Both the position numbers and the translations under genes were made by a program. Shown here piece after piece: positions 8,992 through 59,152 of a stretch of DNA of 64,000 nucleotides (position 1 is its first letter; the number at the start of each line of letters is the position of its first letter). Source of the DNA: an uncultured Gammaproteobacteria bacterium (GTDB taxonomy: Bacteria > Patescibacteriota > Microgenomatia > Levybacterales > UBA12049); NCBI GenBank assembly GCA_964408485.1, contig CAYOZJ010000004.1, forward strand, positions 8,685 to 72,684, given 5' to 3'. The notes beneath the pieces were generated by a model. That model did no database searches and was not told the DNA's origin. It was given only the letters and a program-made list of their open reading frames with translations.

Positions 8992-9068
8992 TAAAAATTT
9001 CAAATCGCCGCTTCGGGGAAGCTGACACCTCGGGGAGGATAATCCCGAGTCGGGAAGTACCCTTGGGG
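8992..9068 (+). repeat. GC-rich repeat family B (core CGCCGCTTCGG(G/C)GAAGCT..GTACCCTTGGGGT), long variant with an internal hairpin. An inverted long copy lies at 16778-16855.
   Basis: Near-identical 70-nt sequence found in reverse complement at 16778-16855. Shorter versions at 15727-15770, 41162-41200 and 35443-35480 (reverse). Confidence 0.55.
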
Positions 9069-9105
9069 TAAGAAATTTAAAATTCCACTATGATATAGTG
9101 GATAT

Positions 9106-9999
9106 ATGTTCCTCTTTGGTAAAAAGATAGCTCACAAACAAGTTAGCCACTTCGAGTCGCTTTCAGAAAAATGGACAGCGCGGCATAGGAGTTTACAGGA
9201 AAAGCTTTGGGAAAAGCATGCCAGGGCTCTTGAGCATCTAAAAAACAAAACAAAGCAATTTGCTGCAGGGTCTTTGGCAGCGGCTATGCTTATTGCGTCT
9301 CCTGGTGCAGCACTATCGACTGCTACTCCTCACACTGTAAAGGAAGTACATTTTAAAGATTTAGATACAGAGACAACCTTTCTTTTAACGCTTGGTTCTC
9401 TTGTTCCGAAAGAGGTACGCCCACTTACACAAGATGAGGAAAGTCATATTGGAAAGATTTTATCAGACCAACTAGGAGCAACGGTGAGTGCAGAGCTAGA
9501 AGGAATTCGTCTCAATCGTTCCTATGGATATATTGGTCAAGAGCAGCATTTAGCCCGTTACAAGGGAGACTCTATGGATACCCATTTCGCATCGGGAGAA
9601 GATGCGCAAAAATATTATGACTATGGCATGGCGCCTGGACTTGGTGCGTATGGATATTTTGCAAAGTCAGGTAATATGACAAAACTTGAAAGTGACCGTG
9701 AAAAATACTACATTGCAGTACAGACATTTTTAGCCCCAGGTTATTTGGAAAATACTAAAAAAATGAATGAGTTTTTTGCATTTCATAAAATGCTCGTTGT
9801 GAATCCGGAAAATGGAAAAGCAATTGTTGCAGATATTGGTGATAGTGGGCCTTCTGAATGGACAGGGAAATCTCTTGGTGGGTCTCCTGAGGTTATGCAC
9901 TACTTAGAGCGAGTTGATGGTGCACAAAAAGGGCCAGTTATTTATATGTTTATCGATGATCCACATGATAAAATTCCATTAGGGCCAGTACAGCTCTAA
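9106..9999 (+). CDS. Hypothetical membrane-anchored protein. The C-terminal region resembles an RlpA-like double-psi beta-barrel (DPBB/3D) domain.
   Basis: N-terminal hydrophobic segment AAGSLAAAMLIASPGAAL. C-terminal VVNPENGKAIVADIGDSGPS..SLGGSPEVMHYL fits the loose RlpA/3D pattern V.N..NG..v...i.D.GP....dlS. Confidence 0.45.
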   Translation: MFLFGKKIAHKQVSHFESLSEKWTARHRSLQEKLWEKHARALEHLKNKTKQFAAGSLAAAMLIASPGAALSTATPHTVKEVHFKDLDTETTFLLTLGSLVPKEVRPLTQDEESHIGKILSDQLGATVSAELEGIRLNRSYGYIGQEQHLARYKGDSMDTHFASGEDAQKYYDYGMAPGLGAYGYFAKSGNMTKLESDREKYYIAVQTFLAPGYLENTKKMNEFFAFHKMLVVNPENGKAIVADIGDSGPSEWTGKSLGGSPEVMHYLERVDGAQKGPVIYMFIDDPHDKIPLGPVQL

Positions 10000-14056: not shown

Positions 14057-14638
14057 ATGAATCTGCAAACTCTTCTGGTAATTCTCAGTTCTATTTTGGT
14101 TACAGTGGGACCCATTACCTATGCGGTAAGCATTATTAAAGGATCAACACGACCTCACCGTATGACGCGATTTATTCTCGCGTTTGTTTTGACATTGAAT
14201 TTTGTTAGCATCCTTGCAGCAAAGAGCAATCTCGGAGCAGAAGTATTCGCAGGAATTACTTGTATTCAGTCGCTCGCCATTTTTGCATTGAGTCTCTGGA
14301 AAGGTATGGGAGGAACAACTAAATTTGATTGGGTATGTTTAGGTATTGCGCTAATTGGATTAGTTGGTTGGAAAATAACAGGGGATCCCCTTTTAGGTGT
14401 TTGGTTTTCTGTTTTGGCAGATTTTGTTGCATATTTACCTGCATTTGTTAAGACATATTACCATCCTCATACAGAATCTCCTTGGTATTATTTGTTGAGT
14501 GGTTTGGCAGCGCTAATTAGTTTAGTGGCATATAAAATAGAATCAGCGTCAATATTTCAAATATATATACTTCTGTGTGTCATTATTATGACTATACTTA
14601 TCTATAGGAAGGATATTAAAAGAAAGTTTAGTTTATAA
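14057..14638 (+). CDS. Hypothetical 6-TM membrane protein
   Basis: Hydrophobic helices only. Confidence 0.4.
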   Translation: MNLQTLLVILSSILVTVGPITYAVSIIKGSTRPHRMTRFILAFVLTLNFVSILAAKSNLGAEVFAGITCIQSLAIFALSLWKGMGGTTKFDWVCLGIALIGLVGWKITGDPLLGVWFSVLADFVAYLPAFVKTYYHPHTESPWYYLLSGLAALISLVAYKIESASIFQIYILLCVIIMTILIYRKDIKRKFSL

Positions 14639-16762
14639 ATATTTTTTTACTTCCAGTTTATAGTCCTTTATTTTAAATTTTTTCCTCAGTTGGGCAATAG
14701 GAAGTGTAAGATACTGTTTTGCTAATTTTTGAGACTCTCTTTCATATTCTTTTGCGAGGGTTTTATATTTTCCAATACCTTTTTTTATAATTTTATCTTC
14801 CTGCTGTAATACGTCAACATAAAGAAGAAATTTTCCCAACCCTTTTTTCTGAAAATCTGACATGGATACGGGGTTGATGCGAATACTGGAGAATTTTTTT
14901 GAAAAAGTAAGACGATGCCTAAATGTTGCCACATTTTTTTCAAGAATTTCTTTGTCCTTTGCCAGAGATTGGTCGGGAAGTCCAAAGCTGTCAAACAGAA
15001 GAGAAAGAAAGAGTCGTTTTGTCCTGTCAATCATGCTTCCACCCATTTCGTCTTTTTCCGGAACAGCCACTCCCATAATTTCTGCTTGTTCACGAGCAAT
15101 ACTTGGCAATGCGCAGGAGATTGCTGCAATATATGTTTGGAGTGCTATCTTTTCATCTTCATGGACTCTTTTTTTGGCTCTTTGAAAAAGTTGCATAAAT
15201 TCCTTGGCACGGTCACTAAATCCATCAATCAAATGCCCAGCTGTATCTGGTATTACGTATTTAGTATTAAGTATATTTTGAGATTTTTCATCCATTCCAC
15301 TTTGTTCAGGATTCGAGATGACAGGATTTTCTTTACGCTTAACGCTTAACGCTTTACGCTGTCTTGCTCTAATCCCATCTAAGACATCGGTAAGATTGCC
15401 AAATGTATAGTGATACCAGCCTTTTGTTTTAGTAATAACGGATTTGTCATTAAGTTGTTTGAGTCCGAGAGAAAGTTTATTGAGTCCCAAAACAGAAATT
15501 TCATTTGGAGAAAGATTTTTATCAACGAGTCGATCTAAAGCCCATTCAAATTTACGAATAACATTTCGCGCTTTATTATTTTGTGCTGGTGTGAATTGCG
15601 ATTGTTTTATTGCTAAATTGTTAAATTGTTGAGATTGCTTCGCTTCAGTTCCTTCGCTCGCAATGACGGAAGTATTGTTGTTTGAGCTTGTCGAGAACCT
15701 TTGGCTTTCTTTTACGCTTGACGCTTGACGCGCCGCTTCGGCAAAGCTAGTACCCTTGGGGTGCTTTACCCTTAATTCCGGTCTGAGTGTCCATAAAATT
15801 TCCTTTGGTCCGTCTCCTTCGAGAATATGAATACTATTATTGTCTTTCATTTTTTCTTTGAGCATCTCGCGTGCAAGTGGTGTTGGATGGACGCCGTATT
15901 GAGAAAGAGTATAAGAGGTTGGGTCCTCCTTCATGGTAAGCATTGGAATATCAACAGTTGCATCGCCAAAAAGAAATGCATGGATACGCTTGTCATTGCG
16001 AGGAGTCGAAGGCGACGTGGCAATCTCATTAGATTGCTTCGCTTTGTTCGTAATGACATTTTCAGAACCAGAATGGCGATTGAGTTCGATCGCCAAATTT
16101 TTTAATACATACTGCACAGCTTTGTCTTTCCCTGCAGTACTTGGGGTAATAAGTAATTCTCCTGAGAATGTTTCTAGTGAGTTTTTCCATAACAACTTTT
16201 CTGTAAGAATAATGCGAATACCCTTTGGGAATAACTTGAGAACTTCCCTGCGAATAGCATCTACTTGTTTGAGTGGATACGTATTGAGTCTAATGCGTAT
16301 TAAATAGGTATTGCCTCTTCCCAAACGAAACATAAGACCATTGCTTTGTAAATACTGTGTGATGCCATCAGTTATTTCCGCTTTATTCCATGAACTAACA
16401 TTGCCTTGTGCATCAGTTACTTTTGTTGACTGCATAGTCCCTTGCCATGAAAAATCACTGATATATCCGTTTCGTGTCGCGAAGTAAATAATCGTCCCAT
16501 TTGCCGTGATAACAGCATCTGGCTTGGGTACGCCAAGAAGCTTTAAGTGATACTTATCAATCCGTCGCCAAAAAGATCGGCCAGTGACAATAATAAAAGG
16601 GATGCATTTTGCAGAAATATACGCTGCTGTTTGTAAATTAAAGAGAGGTGCAGTAAGAAGGTTAAGGTTGGGGCTAAAAAGCGTGCCATCAATATCGGTA
16701 AGCAACATCGTGGGTTTGTCTTGCTTTTCGAGTTTGGTTAAAATTATATCTGTATCAGACAT
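14633..16762 (-). CDS. 709-aa protein. N-terminal HAD-IIB sugar-phosphate phosphatase domain (SPP/MPGP-like), then a ~400-aa region of unknown function. The linker region passes through several GC-rich repeat elements in frame.
   Basis: HAD motif I LLTDIDGTLF, motif II IVTGRS, motif III lysine in AGKDKAVQYV and motif IV FGDATVDIPML. Repeat-derived segments RVKHPKGTSFAEAARQ, VIASEGTEAKQSQ and RKALSVKRK appear in the translation. Confidence 0.6.
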   Translation of the reverse strand: MSDTDIILTKLEKQDKPTMLLTDIDGTLFSPNLNLLTAPLFNLQTAAYISAKCIPFIIVTGRSFWRRIDKYHLKLLGVPKPDAVITANGTIIYFATRNGYISDFSWQGTMQSTKVTDAQGNVSSWNKAEITDGITQYLQSNGLMFRLGRGNTYLIRIRLNTYPLKQVDAIRREVLKLFPKGIRIILTEKLLWKNSLETFSGELLITPSTAGKDKAVQYVLKNLAIELNRHSGSENVITNKAKQSNEIATSPSTPRNDKRIHAFLFGDATVDIPMLTMKEDPTSYTLSQYGVHPTPLAREMLKEKMKDNNSIHILEGDGPKEILWTLRPELRVKHPKGTSFAEAARQASSVKESQRFSTSSNNNTSVIASEGTEAKQSQQFNNLAIKQSQFTPAQNNKARNVIRKFEWALDRLVDKNLSPNEISVLGLNKLSLGLKQLNDKSVITKTKGWYHYTFGNLTDVLDGIRARQRKALSVKRKENPVISNPEQSGMDEKSQNILNTKYVIPDTAGHLIDGFSDRAKEFMQLFQRAKKRVHEDEKIALQTYIAAISCALPSIAREQAEIMGVAVPEKDEMGGSMIDRTKRLFLSLLFDSFGLPDQSLAKDKEILEKNVATFRHRLTFSKKFSSIRINPVSMSDFQKKGLGKFLLYVDVLQQEDKIIKKGIGKYKTLAKEYERESQKLAKQYLTLPIAQLRKKFKIKDYKLEVKKYL
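15636..15770. repeat. Cluster of repeat fragments inside the same CDS: family A half-site 15636-15675, family D ACGCTTGACGCTTGACGC and family B 15727-15770
   Basis: Matches to copies at 18980-19012, 16853-16920 and 41162-41200, seen directly. Confidence 0.5.
16005..16070. repeat. 66-nt imperfect palindrome (family A: GTCATTGCGAG...GCAATCTC/ATTAGATTGC...CGTAATGAC) inserted in frame in the HAD domain. It encodes VITNKAKQSNEIATSPSTPRND between HAD motifs III and IV.
   Basis: The two halves are reverse complements. 66 nt equals 22 codons with no stop in the coding frame. Confidence 0.6.
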
Positions 16763-34725: not shown

Positions 34726-34828
34726 AATTTACCCGTTCGACACTCGATTCAGTGTTTGCTTCGCCGAAGCGGCACAGCTCAGGGATAAATTTTTCCTGAG
34801 CGAATAGAATGAGTCGAAGGATAATCTA

Positions 34829-35407
34829 ATGAACAAAAATATACATAAAGCAATAAGCATTCTTAAATCTGGAGGAATAGTTCTTCTTCCAACAGATACC
34901 GTTTTTGGGATTTGCTGCAGGATAGATAATAAGGAAAGTTTGCAGCGTTTATTTGCAATTAAAAAACGCGATGAGCATCAAGCAGTACCAATACTTGTAA
35001 GTAGTACAGATATGGTAAAGCAGTATGTTGAAGAGTTGGATAATAATGTAGAGCGCCTTATGGAAGACTATTGGCCAGGAGGGTTAACAATTATTTTGAA
35101 AGCAAAAAAAGAAAAAGTTTTATCTCTGGTTAGAGGGGATGGAGATACTATTGGTGTACGAATTCCGGATTTATTATCACCATTTCAAATAATTGAAAAA
35201 TTGGGTGTACCCATTGTTGGCACATCTGCCAATTTTCATGGATTACCATCAGTAACCAAATTTAAAGATTTAGATCCTGAATTGGTTAATCTCGTTGATT
35301 ATGTTTTGGAAGAGGATACTCTTGGTGGAGTTGCGTCAACTGTTGTAGATTGTACTGTTAGTCCATGGAAAATCTTACGCCCAGGAGCTGTTAGCTTAAC
35401 TATTTAA
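34829..35407 (+). CDS. tsaC: L-threonylcarbamoyladenylate synthase TsaC/YrdC-domain protein
   Basis: YrdC fold motifs: LPTDTVFGI, KKRDEHQAVPILV and GTSANFHG. Confidence 0.85.
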   Translation: MNKNIHKAISILKSGGIVLLPTDTVFGICCRIDNKESLQRLFAIKKRDEHQAVPILVSSTDMVKQYVEELDNNVERLMEDYWPGGLTIILKAKKEKVLSLVRGDGDTIGVRIPDLLSPFQIIEKLGVPIVGTSANFHGLPSVTKFKDLDPELVNLVDYVLEEDTLGGVASTVVDCTVSPWKILRPGAVSLTI

Positions 35408-41161: not shown

Positions 41162-41200
41162 AAATCGCCGCTTCGGCGAAGCTAGTACCCTTGGGGTAGT
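41162..41200 (+). repeat. Family B short repeat (AATCGCCGCTTCGGCGAAGCTAGTACCCTTGGGGTAG), 18 nt upstream of the ugd ATG
   Basis: Matches 15727-15770 and the core of 8992-9068. Confidence 0.5.
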
Positions 41201-46880: not shown

Positions 46881-48452
46881 ATGTTCAAAAAATTATTTAC
46901 CAAAACAAACCTTTTGCTCATAGGCATTATACTTCTCGCTTCATTTCTCAGGCTTTATAAAATCCAAGATTATTTGACATTTTTGGGGGATGAGGGACGG
47001 GACATGTTGGTTGTGTACAACATTTTGCACGGACATCCAACACTCCTTGGGCCAACAGCAAGCGTTGGAGGGTTTTTCTTAGGACCAATTTATTACTACT
47101 TCATGGTGCCATTTGTGTGGGTTGCTGGAGGTAACCCTGTTGGGTCGGCAATAATGGTCGCGCTTTTTGGCATTGCTACCGTGTGGCTGACGTACTTTGT
47201 TGGATCTAAATTTTTTAATACGCCTTCAGGACTTGTGGCTGCACTTCTCTACGCTGTGAGTCCTCTCATTATTACCTATTCAAGGTCTTCTTGGAATCCC
47301 AACCCAATGCCATTTTTTGTGTTGTCTCTTTTATACTTTTTGTACCTGGGATTAGAAAAGAAAAATTGGAAATATATTCTTTTCTCTGGAATATTTTTGG
47401 GGATCGCAATGCAACTTCATTATTTAGCAACGTTTGTTGGGGTTATTGTTTTTCTGTACATTCTTTTTGATTCGCTTTATGATTTGATTACGAAATCGAT
47501 TAGAGGTTTGGGCTTTATATATAACCTAACTATACGCTATACGCTATACGCTATTGGCTTTATTCTAGGGTGGTCGCCATTTCTCGCATTTGAAGCGCGT
47601 CATGGATTTAATAACATTCGGGCAATTGTTGATTTTATTTTTCACTCCAAAGAAACAGGAGGAGGAGATATGTATAACGAAATTATCGGCAATGTTTTCT
47701 TTAGAGTATTTGGGAGAATAGTTACCGCTTTCCCTCCACCGGAAAATGTTAATATTCATACTCATCCAGAACTTTCTGTATGGTTTTATGGGACTCTTGT
47801 CGTTGCCATTTTGTCACTTCTTCTCTTAGCATACCTTTTGGTAAAAAACCTTAAAAATAGAAATAAATTTTTGCAGTACAGTCTCCTTGGCTTATGGCTT
47901 GCAGGCGGAGTTTTTCTTTTTGGATTTTATAAAAAACAAATTTATGATTATTATTTTTCATTTTTATTTCCGTTGCCAATTCTTATAGTGGGTGCTGCGA
48001 TAGGATGGACATTTACTAAGAAAATTTGGGTGAAAAGCATTGGTGCTATATTGCTCTTAACGTTACTTATCCTAAATCTTATTAACGAGCCAATACTTCT
48101 TCCTGCAAATCATCAAATGCAACAGGTTGCAGGAATTGCAAGAAAAGTTTTTGATGAGGCGCATGGTAAGCCGTTTAACTTCGCATTAATAACAGGAGGT
48201 AATTCAGATCACGCATATAGATATTTCCTAACAATTTGGGGCAATCCACCAGTTACTATTTTAAATCCAGATGTAGATCCGAAGAGAAAGTCAGTGACAG
48301 ATCAATTGCTTGTTGTCTGCGAAGAGTTGCCATGTCATCCAGAAGGCGCATCACTGTGGGAGGTTGCGGGATTTGGTAGAGCGCAAATTGTAGGAGAGTG
48401 GAATGTGAGTGTTGTACAAGTCTATAAGCTGCAGCACTATACAGGGAAATAA
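46881..48452 (+). CDS. GT-C fold glycosyltransferase of the PMT/ArnT type (GT39/GT83-like), ~12 TM
   Basis: First-loop acidic motif LGDEGRD. Multi-TM N-terminal region with a periplasmic C-terminal domain. Follows the polyprenol-P-sugar synthase. Confidence 0.7.
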   Translation: MFKKLFTKTNLLLIGIILLASFLRLYKIQDYLTFLGDEGRDMLVVYNILHGHPTLLGPTASVGGFFLGPIYYYFMVPFVWVAGGNPVGSAIMVALFGIATVWLTYFVGSKFFNTPSGLVAALLYAVSPLIITYSRSSWNPNPMPFFVLSLLYFLYLGLEKKNWKYILFSGIFLGIAMQLHYLATFVGVIVFLYILFDSLYDLITKSIRGLGFIYNLTIRYTLYAIGFILGWSPFLAFEARHGFNNIRAIVDFIFHSKETGGGDMYNEIIGNVFFRVFGRIVTAFPPPENVNIHTHPELSVWFYGTLVVAILSLLLLAYLLVKNLKNRNKFLQYSLLGLWLAGGVFLFGFYKKQIYDYYFSFLFPLPILIVGAAIGWTFTKKIWVKSIGAILLLTLLILNLINEPILLPANHQMQQVAGIARKVFDEAHGKPFNFALITGGNSDHAYRYFLTIWGNPPVTILNPDVDPKRKSVTDQLLVVCEELPCHPEGASLWEVAGFGRAQIVGEWNVSVVQVYKLQHYTGK

Positions 48453-48526
48453 AATATTTAACCCATTCGATAAGCTCAGGGATAAAATATTTTTTCCTGA
48501 GCGAGCAAAGCGAGTCGAAGGATAAT

Positions 48527-48667
48527 ATGAACCCACAAGATTATAGTTTGAGAAAAGATTTACGAACTCAACTGTGTCCTGTCTGTACGTCTCCAATGGG
48601 TGATATGCCAGGAAGTAGAGATGCTTATTGTTCTAACTGCGGCTACAAAGATCCGTGTTGTGAATAA
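48527..48667 (+). CDS. 46-aa zinc-ribbon micro-protein (CPVC...CSNC)
   Basis: Two CxxC pairs. ATG sits directly after a family A-type repeat that supplies an AAGGA SD-like sequence. Confidence 0.4.
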   Translation: MNPQDYSLRKDLRTQLCPVCTSPMGDMPGSRDAYCSNCGYKDPCCE

Positions 48668-48672
48668 TTGAC

Positions 48673-48942
48673 TTAAAATCGTGGAGGAACTTTAGGTTTT
48701 CTTCTTAAGTTTGCCAATAATTCTCTTGCCGCTTTTACTTCTCGAGCAGTAAATCTTCCCAGTTCATCAGGGTGTTCATTGAGAGCATTAGCAATTTCCT
48801 GAGCTGATAATCGTTTCCTTTTTTCTTCGATATGGCGAGATCCAGAATTTTTATCAAATCGACCTACTGCCTTTATTTTCGTTATATAGAGCTCATTTCT
48901 TTCACTGGCAGATAATGGAGCTAAGGTATCACCTTTGCGCAT
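48673..48942 (-). CDS. Hypothetical 89-aa basic/helical protein
   Basis: ORF only. Confidence 0.35.
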   Translation of the reverse strand: MRKGDTLAPLSASERNELYITKIKAVGRFDKNSGSRHIEEKRKRLSAQEIANALNEHPDELGRFTAREVKAARELLANLRRKPKVPPRF

Positions 48943-48993
48943 ATATGCATTTTACCACAAAGGCAATCTATCTGAGTTTTTCCCATACAAAAA

Positions 48994-49030
48994 CCCCCGC
49001 CTTCAAATGAGAATTAGCGAGGGGGTTTTT
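48994..49030. terminator. GC-rich hairpin flanked by A5 and T5 (AAAAACCCCCGC...GCGAGGGGGTTTTT), bidirectional-terminator-like
   Basis: Seen directly. Located downstream of the minus-strand micro-ORF 49047-49190. Confidence 0.45.
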
Positions 49031-49046
49031 GATATGCAATTGGCGC

Positions 49047-49190
49047 TTATGCACCAATTTTAAACATGCCTGTGCCACAAACTGGACACTTAGCTTTCTT
49101 TGCATGTTTGCCGTTTTTCATAACGACATCTTCTGCATCTTCAACATCTCTCTTAGCTCGGCATTTTACGCAATACATTGTTACTGTCAT
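49047..49190 (-). CDS. 47-aa zinc-ribbon micro-protein MTVTMYCVKCRAKRDVEDAEDVVMKNGKHAKKAKCPVCGTGMFKIGA (DUF5679-like pattern) with a strong SD
   Basis: CxxC...CxxC, SD GAAGGGGGGTGAAATACC then ATG. Not in the ORF track because it is under 60 aa. Confidence 0.45.
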   Translation of the reverse strand: MTVTMYCVKCRAKRDVEDAEDVVMKNGKHAKKAKCPVCGTGMFKIGA

Positions 49191-49313
49191 GGTATTTCAC
49201 CCCCCTTCGCCATCCGTAACTTTAGTGTAGGATGGTTTCACTCCTTAATTTTTACTACTGTGTTGTCTGTTTAAGGTTCAGGCTTCGGGGGGCACGCCCC
49301 CTATTTCCCCATA

Positions 49314-49598
49314 TTAATATCTTACAAATCCTATTGCAAGCATATGGTGACTAAGTAAAAAATAAAAAAGGAGTTCTAATCCAACAATGATTATAGAAAT
49401 AAGTGCAGTTTTGCGTAAATCATTTTGCGCAATAGATATCGTATTTCCTGATTCTTGGGCTTGTCCAATAGATGGAGAAATGTTTTTTGCAGAAAAAACA
49501 TACGTTGGGGATGTATGGACGTGTTGGGCAGCAAGAGTTGCAGAATTCCTAACATCCGAAACCTTTTTCTGCGCCCTTGTCTTTTTGTGCTTAGGCAT
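49314..49598 (-). CDS. Small membrane protein (94 aa), basic N-terminus and one C-terminal TM
   Basis: ORF plus hydrophobic segment ALISIIIVGLELLFYFLL. Confidence 0.35.
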   Translation of the reverse strand: MPKHKKTRAQKKVSDVRNSATLAAQHVHTSPTYVFSAKNISPSIGQAQESGNTISIAQNDLRKTALISIIIVGLELLFYFLLSHHMLAIGFVRY

Positions 49599-49657
49599 GA
49601 TCTTCAGGCAGATTACACCATTGACAGCGAGCCTGTCAAGAGGCTACCATAACTAGT

Positions 49658-50140
49658 ATGCTCGTCGTTGCATTTGTTCTTATTGGTCTTTTAACTGTTT
49701 GGGTTGCTGTATTAACCTATTTCTTTTGGTCTCTCTCTGCTCACTACAATAATTTGGTCAAGACAACAAATAAAAAAACAATGCAGCAAGTCCTTGACTC
49801 ACTTCTTGCTGACATCGCTTTCGCAAAAAAGGATATTGCCAATCTTTCCAAAACGTGTGATACAATCATTGAAGAGGGTAAGTTTCATATTCAGAAAGTT
49901 GGTCTTCTTCGATTTAACCCATTTAAGGAAACAGGAGGAGATCAAAGTTTTATTCTGTCTCTCTTAGATAAGCAAGATAATGGTATTGTATTATCTGGAT
50001 TGTATTCCAGAACAGGAATGCGATGGTATGCAAAGAAGATAAAAGAGGGAAAGGGACTCGAGCATACACTCTCTGAAGAAGAAAAAGAAGCAATTAGACA
50101 AGCCCGTCTGCCAGACGGTCACGAAGTTGTTTCAAAATAA
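49658..50140 (+). CDS. Hypothetical N-terminally anchored protein, possibly DUF4446-like
   Basis: N-terminal TM then a conserved-looking LLRFNPFKETGGDQSFILSLLD block. Confidence 0.4.
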   Translation: MLVVAFVLIGLLTVWVAVLTYFFWSLSAHYNNLVKTTNKKTMQQVLDSLLADIAFAKKDIANLSKTCDTIIEEGKFHIQKVGLLRFNPFKETGGDQSFILSLLDKQDNGIVLSGLYSRTGMRWYAKKIKEGKGLEHTLSEEEKEAIRQARLPDGHEVVSK

Positions 50141-58993: not shown

Positions 58994-59152
58994 CTAATTG
59001 CCACTACCGTTACGGCTTCGTTGGCCTTTTTGTTGCAGACGTGCCCATCTTGTTCTTGGATCAGGTGCTGCATCTGTTCTATATTTCTTTTTAAGTTCAA
59101 CCTGTTGAGCTGTTCTTGGATCAACTGATTGATCTGCTTCACTTGTTTGCAT
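58994..59152 (-). CDS. 52-aa micro-protein MQTSEADQSVDPRTAQQ...DPRTRWARLQQKGQRSRNGSGN with a strong SD (AAAGGGGGTGAAAAAAT then ATG)
   Basis: The SD context is nearly identical to that of micro-ORF 49047-49190. Internal DPRT repeat. Not in the ORF track. Confidence 0.35.
   Translation of the reverse strand: MQTSEADQSVDPRTAQQVELKKKYRTDAAPDPRTRWARLQQKGQRSRNGSGN

Follow-up and report, generated by a model that had tools for sequence, protein, structure and literature searches.

A conserved six-cysteine micro-protein family and a DUF5679 gene with an exceptional Shine-Dalgarno sequence in a run of four small Patescibacteria genes

Results

Layout of the Locus and Its Conservation

The four small open reading frames (ORFs) analyzed here, designated ORF1 to ORF4, lie within a stretch of 64,000 nucleotides (nt) of contig CAYOZJ010000004.1 from assembly GCA_964408485.1. 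The whole stretch, called the window below, is AT-rich (GC content of 37.6%). On the left the run is flanked by the gene of a PMT_2/GT-C glycosyltransferase (46881-48452, + strand), recognized by a family library match, and on the right by a gene of the DUF4446 family (49658-50140, + strand; match at 5e-36) with a DUF3048 gene next to it. According to the ORF listing, ORF1 (48527-48667, + strand) encodes 46 amino acids (aa), ORF2 (48673-48942, - strand) 89 aa with a net charge of about +9, and ORF3 (49047-49190, - strand) 47 aa with a CxxC...CxxC arrangement. The product of ORF4 (49314-49598, - strand) has 94 aa and ends in a hydrophobic helix. An earlier note on this DNA had read the four ORFs as one cluster of tiny, probably highly translated genes accompanied by two hairpins, a repeat and a strong Shine-Dalgarno (SD) sequence, and all of these elements were found where it had placed them.

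For comparison, one genome per species was scanned with an ORF1 alignment, which gave 223 genomes encoding a relative of ORF1; 80 loci (L numbers) were taken from them, and the counts out of 80 refer to this set. The relatives of the window detected in the scan are Patescibacteria, mostly labelled Levyibacteriota or Microgenomates, and the window itself has the look of Levybacteria-like Patescibacteria DNA. In tblastn searches with the window proteins, the order GT-C(+), ORF1(+), variable gap, DUF5679(-), ORF of approximately 91 aa(-), DUF4446(+), DUF3048(+) was retained in about 40 of the 80 loci, and ORF1, ORF3 and ORF4 were thereby kept in place in about 40 related genomes, as expected of real genes.

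The conservation of gene order did not extend to the whole group. The distance between ORF1 and ORF3 varies among the relatives from about 60 bp to 5.9 kb, and the gap is elsewhere filled by unrelated housekeeping genes, e.g., those for endonuclease III or an NTPase. ORF1 resides in a wholly different neighbourhood in 28 of the 80 loci, and ORF2 is absent from the closest relative, L002. The variable gap, the relocation of ORF1 and the loss of ORF2 argue that the four genes do not form one unit, contrary to what had been proposed. We regard all four as real genes belonging to three or four transcription units and reject a single functional module, an explanation that as a whole seems to us likely. 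None of the four products matched a PHROG or PADLOC family better than E 0.005 or pointed to a functional family, and the idea of small phage or defence-system proteins was abandoned. A tRNA scan of the window was also negative.

The ORF1 Family

ORF1 contains six cysteines (C17xxC20, C35xxC38 and C44C45), and its family follows the C-terminal pattern CxxC-x14-CxxC-x5-CC-E. Sixty close homologues share 54-90% identity. Their N-termini are variable and the C-terminal core is extremely conserved: within Levybacteria the stretch MGDMPGSRDAYCxNCGYKDPCCE is nearly invariant, and the tail GYKDPCCE, which places two neighbouring cysteines at the free C-terminus, is invariant. A HMMER profile search of 1.84 billion representative proteins returned 153 clusters, nearly all of them with proteins of 40-100 aa and the domain at the extreme C-terminus; its top match, P0064 (2817 aa), was a cysteine-free repeat protein and was discarded as a false positive. 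Of 194 family members, 175 retain the strict spacing with 0-3 residues after the CC pair, and 190 have 0-3 residues after their last cysteine. The codon-position entropies of ORF1 were 0.50, 0.46 and 1.32 for positions 1, 2 and 3, respectively. The excess at the third position (2.6-2.9 times the values at positions 1 and 2) indicates purifying selection at the protein level.

The exact ORF1 protein was absent from a collection of 15 billion proteins that contains ORF2, ORF4 and the GT-C protein of the same NCBI contig (129,061 bp), so the source annotation has probably missed this gene. Proteins shorter than 50 aa are routinely overlooked by gene callers. No Pfam or NCBIfam family was found for ORF1, the Pfam model Zn_ribbon_NUD remaining below threshold (E 0.037), and judged from its alignment and the curated libraries searched, the family is conserved and uncurated. 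Literature searches on the KDPCC motif and on small zinc ribbons or SufU of Patescibacteria retrieved nothing relevant.

The AlphaFold2 model of ORF1 resembles a zinc ribbon, with a predicted local distance difference test (pLDDT) score of 71. Its Foldseek matches (NudC, eL43, TFIIB, RPA12, ZifS and 4rvz) were all non-significant, the best reaching E 0.64, and the sequence and fold searches of the PDB gave nothing significant, S27ae matching the ORF1 profile at E 1.7.

The suggestion that ORF1, like ORF3, might be a DUF5679 or a ribosomal zinc ribbon was not upheld. Pfam DUF5679 did not match ORF1 at E <= 1. The hhalign comparison covered only 13 columns, a single knuckle, and was out of register, with the N-terminal ORF1 knuckle placed on the C-terminal one of DUF5679; the hidden Markov model (HMM) of the ORF1 family gave DUF5679 proteins 11-14 bits versus at least 53 for true members. 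Models of the ribosomal zinc ribbons bL28, bL33, bL36 and eS27/S27a in Pfam and NCBIfam did not match above threshold, and ORF1 has a net charge of about -1 rather than being strongly basic. The two ribbons of the locus belong to unrelated families.

Genomic Neighbourhoods of ORF1

In 11 of the 80 loci, sufS and sufU lie directly upstream of ORF1 on the same strand. Eight of these 11 loci also have sufB and sufD ahead of them, and a single-cluster ferredoxin gene separates sufU from ORF1 in five. In these predicted sufS-sufU-ferredoxin(-OFOR) operons, ORF1 comes last or second to last. The alpha subunit gene of a 2-oxoacid:ferredoxin oxidoreductase (OFOR) directly follows ORF1 in L030, L033, L040 and L073, with the beta subunit gene also present in L040 and L073. 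In Levybacteria with suf genes between the GT-C gene and ORF1, ORF1 remains at the 3' end of the suf block. When six distant members of the family were looked up independently, two showed the suf order: Rieske-SufS-SufU-ferredoxin-ORF1 in L211, and SufU-ferredoxin-ORF1-GreA-OFOR in L210, where the alpha gene follows GreA and beta was detected.

Other redox genes recur next to ORF1. The gene of NrdJ, the class II ribonucleotide reductase (RNR), is found upstream in L061, L064 and L078, that of a Bcp peroxiredoxin upstream in L076, L077, L079 and L080, and that of a glutaredoxin downstream in five loci (L066, L068, L071, L072 and L075).

It was also observed that the order sufB-sufD-sufS-sufU-ferredoxin(Fer4_13/15)-ORF1-like occurs on one strand in several Patescibacteria lineages (L030, L033, L040, L057, L073, L210 and L211), and that the suf-ORF1 order without the ferredoxin occurs in L034, L045, L047, L052, L060 and L062.

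ORF3 Is a DUF5679 Protein with an Exceptional SD

ORF3 was recognized by the Pfam model of DUF5679 (PF18930) with 54.3 bits (cut-off 27; E 1.5e-14) over the full profile (1-40 of 40), in agreement with the assignment guessed in the earlier note. Both CxxC knuckles of the family are present, and nothing sets ORF3 apart from it. In an alignment of 15 related sequences, 19 columns were invariant, including all four cysteines (C7xxC10 and C35xxC38). Homologues with 62-100% identity occur in 47 of the 80 loci, and the NCBI name of the cluster mate at 90% identity, from the closest related genome, is 'DUF5679 domain-containing protein'. A ribosomal zinc ribbon was rejected for ORF3 as well, no Pfam or NCBIfam model of this kind exceeding its threshold (Ribosomal_S27, E 0.6). 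The protein is basic (net charge of about +5) and probably binds nucleic acid or the ribosome.

SD strength was expressed as the duplex energy that the 3' tail of the 16S rRNA reaches with the 25 nt preceding each start. The extended SD of ORF3, GAAGGGGGGTGA (49197-49208, - strand; 6 nt ahead of the ATG), reached -15.0 kcal/mol and was the strongest among the genes tested in the window. The median for the 61 long genes of the window was -2.4 kcal/mol, near background, and only four of them reached -8. Among the small genes, ORF3 alone has a strong SD, the values for ORF1, ORF4 and ORF2 being -6.0, -5.3 and -2.9 kcal/mol, respectively. In the relatives, the SD of ORF3 was kept as GAAAGG(G/A)GGTGA in 47 of 48 loci, with energies from -15.0 to -16.6 kcal/mol; among the 1286 genes of these loci that encode 100 aa or more, just 0.3-0.5% attained -15. 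Where this extended SD was found before other genes, most of them likewise encoded small products, among them MscL, a glutaredoxin and small secreted proteins. The strength and the invariance of this SD argue for a high output, and ORF3 is probably abundant. The prediction of high translation for the tiny genes in general is thus narrowed to ORF3; homologues of ORF1 as a rule lack an SD (median -1.25), and a -10-like box beside the ATG is frequent among them.

The scarcity of SDs in the window, noted earlier, is accompanied by an excess of leaderless-like starts. A -10-like box was found 4-11 nt ahead of the start in 13 of the 61 genes (21%) versus 5.8% in the background (p = 4e-5). The simplest reading of these patterns is that promoter-proximal genes would be leaderless and that ORF3, as a second cistron, would need an SD.

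Two further observations concern SDs of the window. The few strong ones stand at promoter-distal cistrons (10113, 11400, 21191 and 51933). A 52-aa ORF, MQTSEADQSVDPRTAQQ..., at 58994-59152 (- strand) is preceded by a similar extended SD, AGAAAGGGGGTGAAAAAAT, followed by ATG, and lies in a stretch without any ORF of at least 100 aa.

A parallel for ORF3 comes from the SD-poor Flavobacteria, in which an extended SD belongs to a single gene, rpsU (bS21), autoregulated via the availability of the anti-SD (PMC9976891, PMC13000453). In both cases most genes of the lineage lack SDs, and a gene for a small basic protein has retained an extended SD that is close to perfect. Unlike in Flavobacteria, here other genes use SDs too, several small genes share the same extended SD, and the second-cistron position of ORF3 offers a simpler reason for its SD. 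That the invariant extended SD marks DUF5679 as an rpsU-like autoregulated protein tied to the ribosome or the anti-SD would be an attractive reading by analogy, and seems quite improbable.

ORF4 and Its Association with ORF3

The N-terminus of ORF4, MPKHKKTRAQKK, is basic, the protein carries a DLRKT motif, and its C-terminus is a transmembrane helix with a peak Kyte-Doolittle mean of 2.4 over 19 residues. A large word-indexed database yielded one homologue, with 51% identity. When neighbouring genes were clustered, a positional family emerged: 42 loci encode a protein of about 91 aa at this place and on the same strand. The family alignment displays the N-terminal motif M[AP]KK.KTR.QK and DL.KT ahead of the C-terminal transmembrane helix. 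These features identify ORF4, as far as sequence can tell, as a conserved tail-anchored membrane protein. Wherever it was detected, ORF4 adjoins ORF3 on the same strand at a distance of 39-124 nt and is divergent from the DUF4446 gene; its co-transcription with ORF3 is probable.

In the proposed arrangement, ORF4 and ORF3 would constitute a bicistronic unit on the - strand, with ORF4 first and a promoter divergent from DUF4446. ORF3 would be the promoter-distal cistron, in a genome where most starts are leaderless or SD-less, and its translation from an extended SD that is close to perfect again suggests an abundant product. The promoter scan predicted a divergent promoter region at 49599-49657 (both strands), which has TTGACA-18-TACCAT in the direction of DUF4446 (+ strand) and TGGTGTAAT in that of ORF4 (- strand), the latter overlapping the -35 box of the former. 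It may be added that this 59-nt spacer between ORF4 and DUF4446 is conserved (about 10694-10745 in L002 and about 10994-11045 in L005) and that the two overlapping predicted promoters share the block ACCATTGACA.

The Shared Terminator and Other Hairpins

The hairpin at 48988-49031 consists of A5, a stem of CCCCCGCC...GCGAGGGGG and T5. It folds with -25.9 kcal/mol on the - strand and -22.8 kcal/mol on the + strand (z -3.8 and -2.9), and with its GC-rich stem and U-tract it constitutes an intrinsic terminator on both strands, as the earlier note had held. A simple terminator scan had passed over it since the loop exceeds 8 nt. In relatives, the hairpin occurs right after ORF1 (L002) or after the ORF2 homologue (L005), and a GC hairpin with a T-run is present downstream of DUF5679 in most loci. 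On sequence grounds, this element is the terminator of both the ORF3 transcript (- strand) and the GT-C/ORF1 transcript (+ strand). As a separate observation, an extra conserved hairpin, (C)TTCTTGAAG...CTTCAAGAAAC, lies between the DUF5679 stop codon and the terminator in L010, L013, L015, L020, L027, L042, L047, L049, L052, L055, L058, L060 and L062, and is not found in the window, L002 or L005.

The second hairpin, GGGGGGCACGCCCCC (the GGGGGCACGCCCCC hairpin described after ORF4; 49287-49301, both strands), is located in the ORF4-ORF3 spacer and is unique in the window. It is present as described, and lacks conservation and a terminator-like character: there is no U-tract on the - strand and just TATTT on the + strand. 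The spacer measures 123 nt here versus about 67 nt in L002 and L005, both without the hairpin, so that approximately 55 nt are extra in this genome only. Judged by this comparison, the hairpin is an insertion specific to this genome. We also considered whether the spacer forms a structured RNA hiding the SD of ORF3. In the fold of lowest energy the SD is indeed paired, with a C-run, but the spacer folds no better than shuffled sequences (z 0.01) and the extra sequence is not conserved; the idea was rejected.

An Inserted Repeat Upstream of ORF1

The region between the GT-C stop codon and the ORF1 start is occupied by an intergenic repeat with a nested hairpin (about 48457-48526, + strand), whose 3' end, GTCGAAGGATAAT, supplies ORF1 with its SD-like AAGGA. 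It folds with -20.3 kcal/mol (z -3.5), the AAGG(A) lying within the outer stem. A second copy is situated at about 34728-34825, ahead of the Sua5/TsaC gene at 34829. The start of ORF1 next to a repeat is real in this genome and specific to it: the repeat is absent from the ORF1 site in L002, L005 and all 80 related loci, and in L005 the GT-C gene and ORF1 are only 2 nt apart. The 27-nt core of the repeat, TCCTGAGCGA-N7-GAGTCGAAGG (48496-48522 and 34795-34821 in the window), was detected in at least 120 metagenome contigs (L082-L201). Given its absence in relatives and its wide distribution in metagenomes, we consider it an inserted copy of a widespread hairpin repeat and not a conserved leader of ORF1. 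Rfam 15 gave no match at gathering score in the window, and only chance-level matches at E <= 1 within 48380-49700, which comprises the repeat and the spacers.

The composition of the contigs carrying the core runs from AT-rich to very GC-rich, and the core often takes the form ..GTCATCCTGAGCGAGCGxAGCGAGTCGAAGGATCTGC.. there. A second family of intergenic repeats, ..TCGCCGCTTCGGCGAAGCTAGTACCCTTGGGGT.., was seen at about 9003-9070, 15728-15765 and 41163-41200. Two of these copies precede the genes at 9106 and 41218, and one lies within the 14633-16762 ORF. The core of the GC hairpin of this family, GCTTCG[GC]CGAAGC, recurs at 34758-34770, nested in the 34726 copy of the first repeat.

ORF2 Occupies a Variable Slot

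A search of 5.8 billion proteins with ORF2 returned the query itself only. The one positional homologue, 41% identical, fills this slot in L005, and in L002, which lacks the gene, the terminator directly follows ORF1. Pfam, NCBIfam, PHROG and PADLOC gave no family above threshold (best PHROG match at E 0.027). The single-sequence AlphaFold2 model contains four helices (pLDDT 68) and had no fold match in the PDB. An extended -10 box, TGGTAAAAT (48949-48957, - strand; 6 nt before the ATG), was identified by inspection and by the -10 scan as the predicted promoter of a leaderless mRNA. We read ORF2 as the gene of a lineage-specific, basic protein, predicted to be all-helical and apparently leaderless; it is retained in the variable slot between ORF1 and the terminator in two close genomes and has been lost from a third. 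That it binds DNA is a guess from its charge and the motif RLSxxEIAxAL.

Discussion

The region is an ordinary run of small genes with two points of interest, the ORF1 family and the SD of DUF5679. The "cluster" is an accident of gene order, and seeing it so guards against over-interpretation.

The gene neighbourhoods are the only functional lead for ORF1, and the link that they provide is partial. The recurrence of ORF1 beside suf-ferredoxin(-OFOR), NrdJ, peroxiredoxin and glutaredoxin genes led us to propose a docking ribbon with a cysteine-pair relay. According to this model, ORF1 would be expressed from the + strand downstream of the GT-C gene, on a transcript ending at the shared terminator. 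The four cysteines of CPxC ... CxNC would form a zinc-ribbon or rubredoxin-like metal knuckle with Zn or Fe, the metal-bound ribbon would dock on a partner, and electrons or sulfur would be relayed by the pair of cysteines at the C-terminus, as a dithiol/disulfide or a persulfide, in iron-sulfur-cluster or thiol metabolism. We offer it tentatively, as a possible role that falls short of a probable one. A more specific version is slightly more doubtful still, namely, that the family is an unrecognised part of the minimal SUF/ferredoxin machinery of Patescibacteria: a redox/sulfur shuttle of approximately 35 residues, docking on SufU, ferredoxin or OFOR (or on NrdJ or peroxiredoxin), with the vicinal cysteines at its C-terminus carrying electrons or persulfide sulfur.

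Several points weigh against this proposal. Four of the six distant members (P0160, P0200, P0130 and P0134) have unrelated neighbours with no common partner, and in the lineage of the window itself ORF1 adjoins the glycosyltransferase gene, not suf genes. The redox and iron-sulfur link comes from a subset of lineages, all likely Patescibacteria. With its pLDDT of 71, the structural model is only moderate, and the metal may be Zn or Fe. Vicinal disulfides are strained and rare, and the CC pair of ORF1 could bind metal instead. Regarding the wider account of the locus, operons and promoters are predictions, ORF2 is represented by only two sequences, and DUF5679 has no characterised member and had neither a significant PDB relative in the sequence and fold searches nor relevant literature in ours.

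Among known proteins, rubredoxin, desulforedoxin and generic zinc ribbons (the NudC zinc ribbon, TFIIB/TFS, eL43 and ZifS) share with ORF1 two CxxC knuckles on a small beta-ribbon, and zinc ribbons were its best fold matches. CPxC and CxxCGY are typical rubredoxin-type knuckles, and desulforedoxin also has adjacent cysteines. ORF1 differs from rubredoxin in the reversed order of the knuckles, the 14-residue loop and the additional invariant CC at the C-terminus, which has no counterpart there, and no match to these proteins was significant.

According to the rival that survives best, ORF1 would correspond to the cysteine-rich C-terminal tip of NrdJ in free-standing form and would serve as the electron shuttle by which the RNR active site is re-reduced. 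The NrdJ tail has six cysteines at its extreme C-terminus, four of them proposed zinc ligands and two a redox pair, and in one subclass the cysteine-rich domain is a separate gene (Loderer et al. 2017, PMC5704485). The features shared with ORF1 are six cysteines at the extreme C-terminus, a CPxCG ... CxxCG[YF] knuckle pattern, a proposed Zn(Cys)4 site with a redox pair, a possible separate gene and an occasional adjacency. The NrdJ tails of Patescibacteria end in ...CPSCG-x10-CKKCHSCGYSEC, resembling CPxC...CxxCGYKDPCC of ORF1, homologues of ORF1 lie shortly downstream of NrdJ in L061, L064 and L078, and the zinc ribbon 4rvz, used for modelling the NrdJ tail, is one of the non-significant fold matches of ORF1. 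The sequence comparisons did not bear the relationship out. The HMM of the ORF1 family gave the NrdJ of L078 only 0.6 bits and did not detect the tails of L061 and L064, and no protein of RNR size (approximately 830 aa) was present in the best 150 of the 153 matches of the ORF1 profile search. The spacing of the cysteines is CX2C-x10-CX2CX2C-x4-C in NrdJ (tested as CX2C-x9/10-C-X2-C-X2-C-x4/5-C) versus CX2C-x14-CX2C-x5-CC in ORF1, the redox pair of NrdJ is C933/C945 versus the vicinal CC, and its domain has 150-220 aa versus the 46 aa of ORF1. Moreover, the three adjoining NrdJ proteins retain their own tails, adjacency concerns just three of the 80 loci, and no RNR gene was present among the window ORFs tested. 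We view the resemblance as an analogy in which homology is not demonstrable, and a derivation of ORF1 from the NrdJ tip as unlikely.

In the three loci concerned, the NrdJ C-termini read ...DLCPxCGxAAxVxEEGCxKCxxCG[YF]S[EK]C, which is the six-cysteine tail of Loderer et al. 2017, and the gene of the ORF1 family follows NrdJ directly or after a Nudix or MazG-like gene.

The view of the locus as a co-functional cluster of highly translated micro-proteins, with zinc ribbons akin to each other and to DUF5679 or ribosomal zinc ribbons, was prompted by real features. The genes are adjacent in about 40 genomes, ORF3 is indeed a DUF5679 protein with an extreme SD, both small proteins have two CxxC knuckles, and ribosomal zinc ribbons occur among the best, non-significant Foldseek matches of ORF1. 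It is already largely refuted and has become improbable: ORF1 matches neither DUF5679 nor L28, L33, L36 or S27 (S27ae in the PDB at E 1.7, one knuckle in hhalign), has a slightly negative charge and usually no SD, is separated from ORF3 by a variable gap with unrelated housekeeping genes or resides elsewhere, and ORF2 is dispensable.

The six cysteines within 46 residues, together with the conserved C-terminal core and the variable N-terminus, would also suit the precursor of a modified ribosomal peptide or a cofactor derived from a peptide, comparable to SCIFF/ranthipeptides, PqqA or MftA. This role is very improbable for ORF1, given that no model of SCIFF or another such precursor in NCBIfam or Pfam matched it, no radical-SAM, YcaO or other maturase gene recurred in the 80 loci and six extra contexts, and the predicted fold is that of an ordinary metal-binding ribbon.

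Finally, that the small ORFs are chance frames and the hairpins mere terminators of the flanking genes accords with the single homologue of ORF2, the absence of the exact ORF1 from the protein collection and the terminator at 48988-49031, but is refuted for ORF1 by its presence in 223 species and its third-position entropy, for ORF3 by a score of twice the Pfam threshold and for ORF4 by a positional family with conserved motifs in 42 loci. For ORF2, the 41% identity in the same slot and the -10 box at the right distance speak against it. Of all the alternatives it is the least probable.

Returning to the docking ribbon with a cysteine-pair relay, Patescibacteria have tiny genomes with many conserved genes without an assigned function, and to our knowledge the route by which reducing equivalents reach the SUF system is still unsettled. 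For DUF5679, an extended SD maintained in 47 of 48 genomes that are largely without SDs would be the first quantitative clue to the expression of this large family. If the proposal for ORF1 is true, its family, encoded in more than 200 species, nearly invariant and found repeatedly after sufS-sufU-ferredoxin, would be a candidate for an electron or sulfur relay that the minimal pathway of iron-sulfur biogenesis still lacks.

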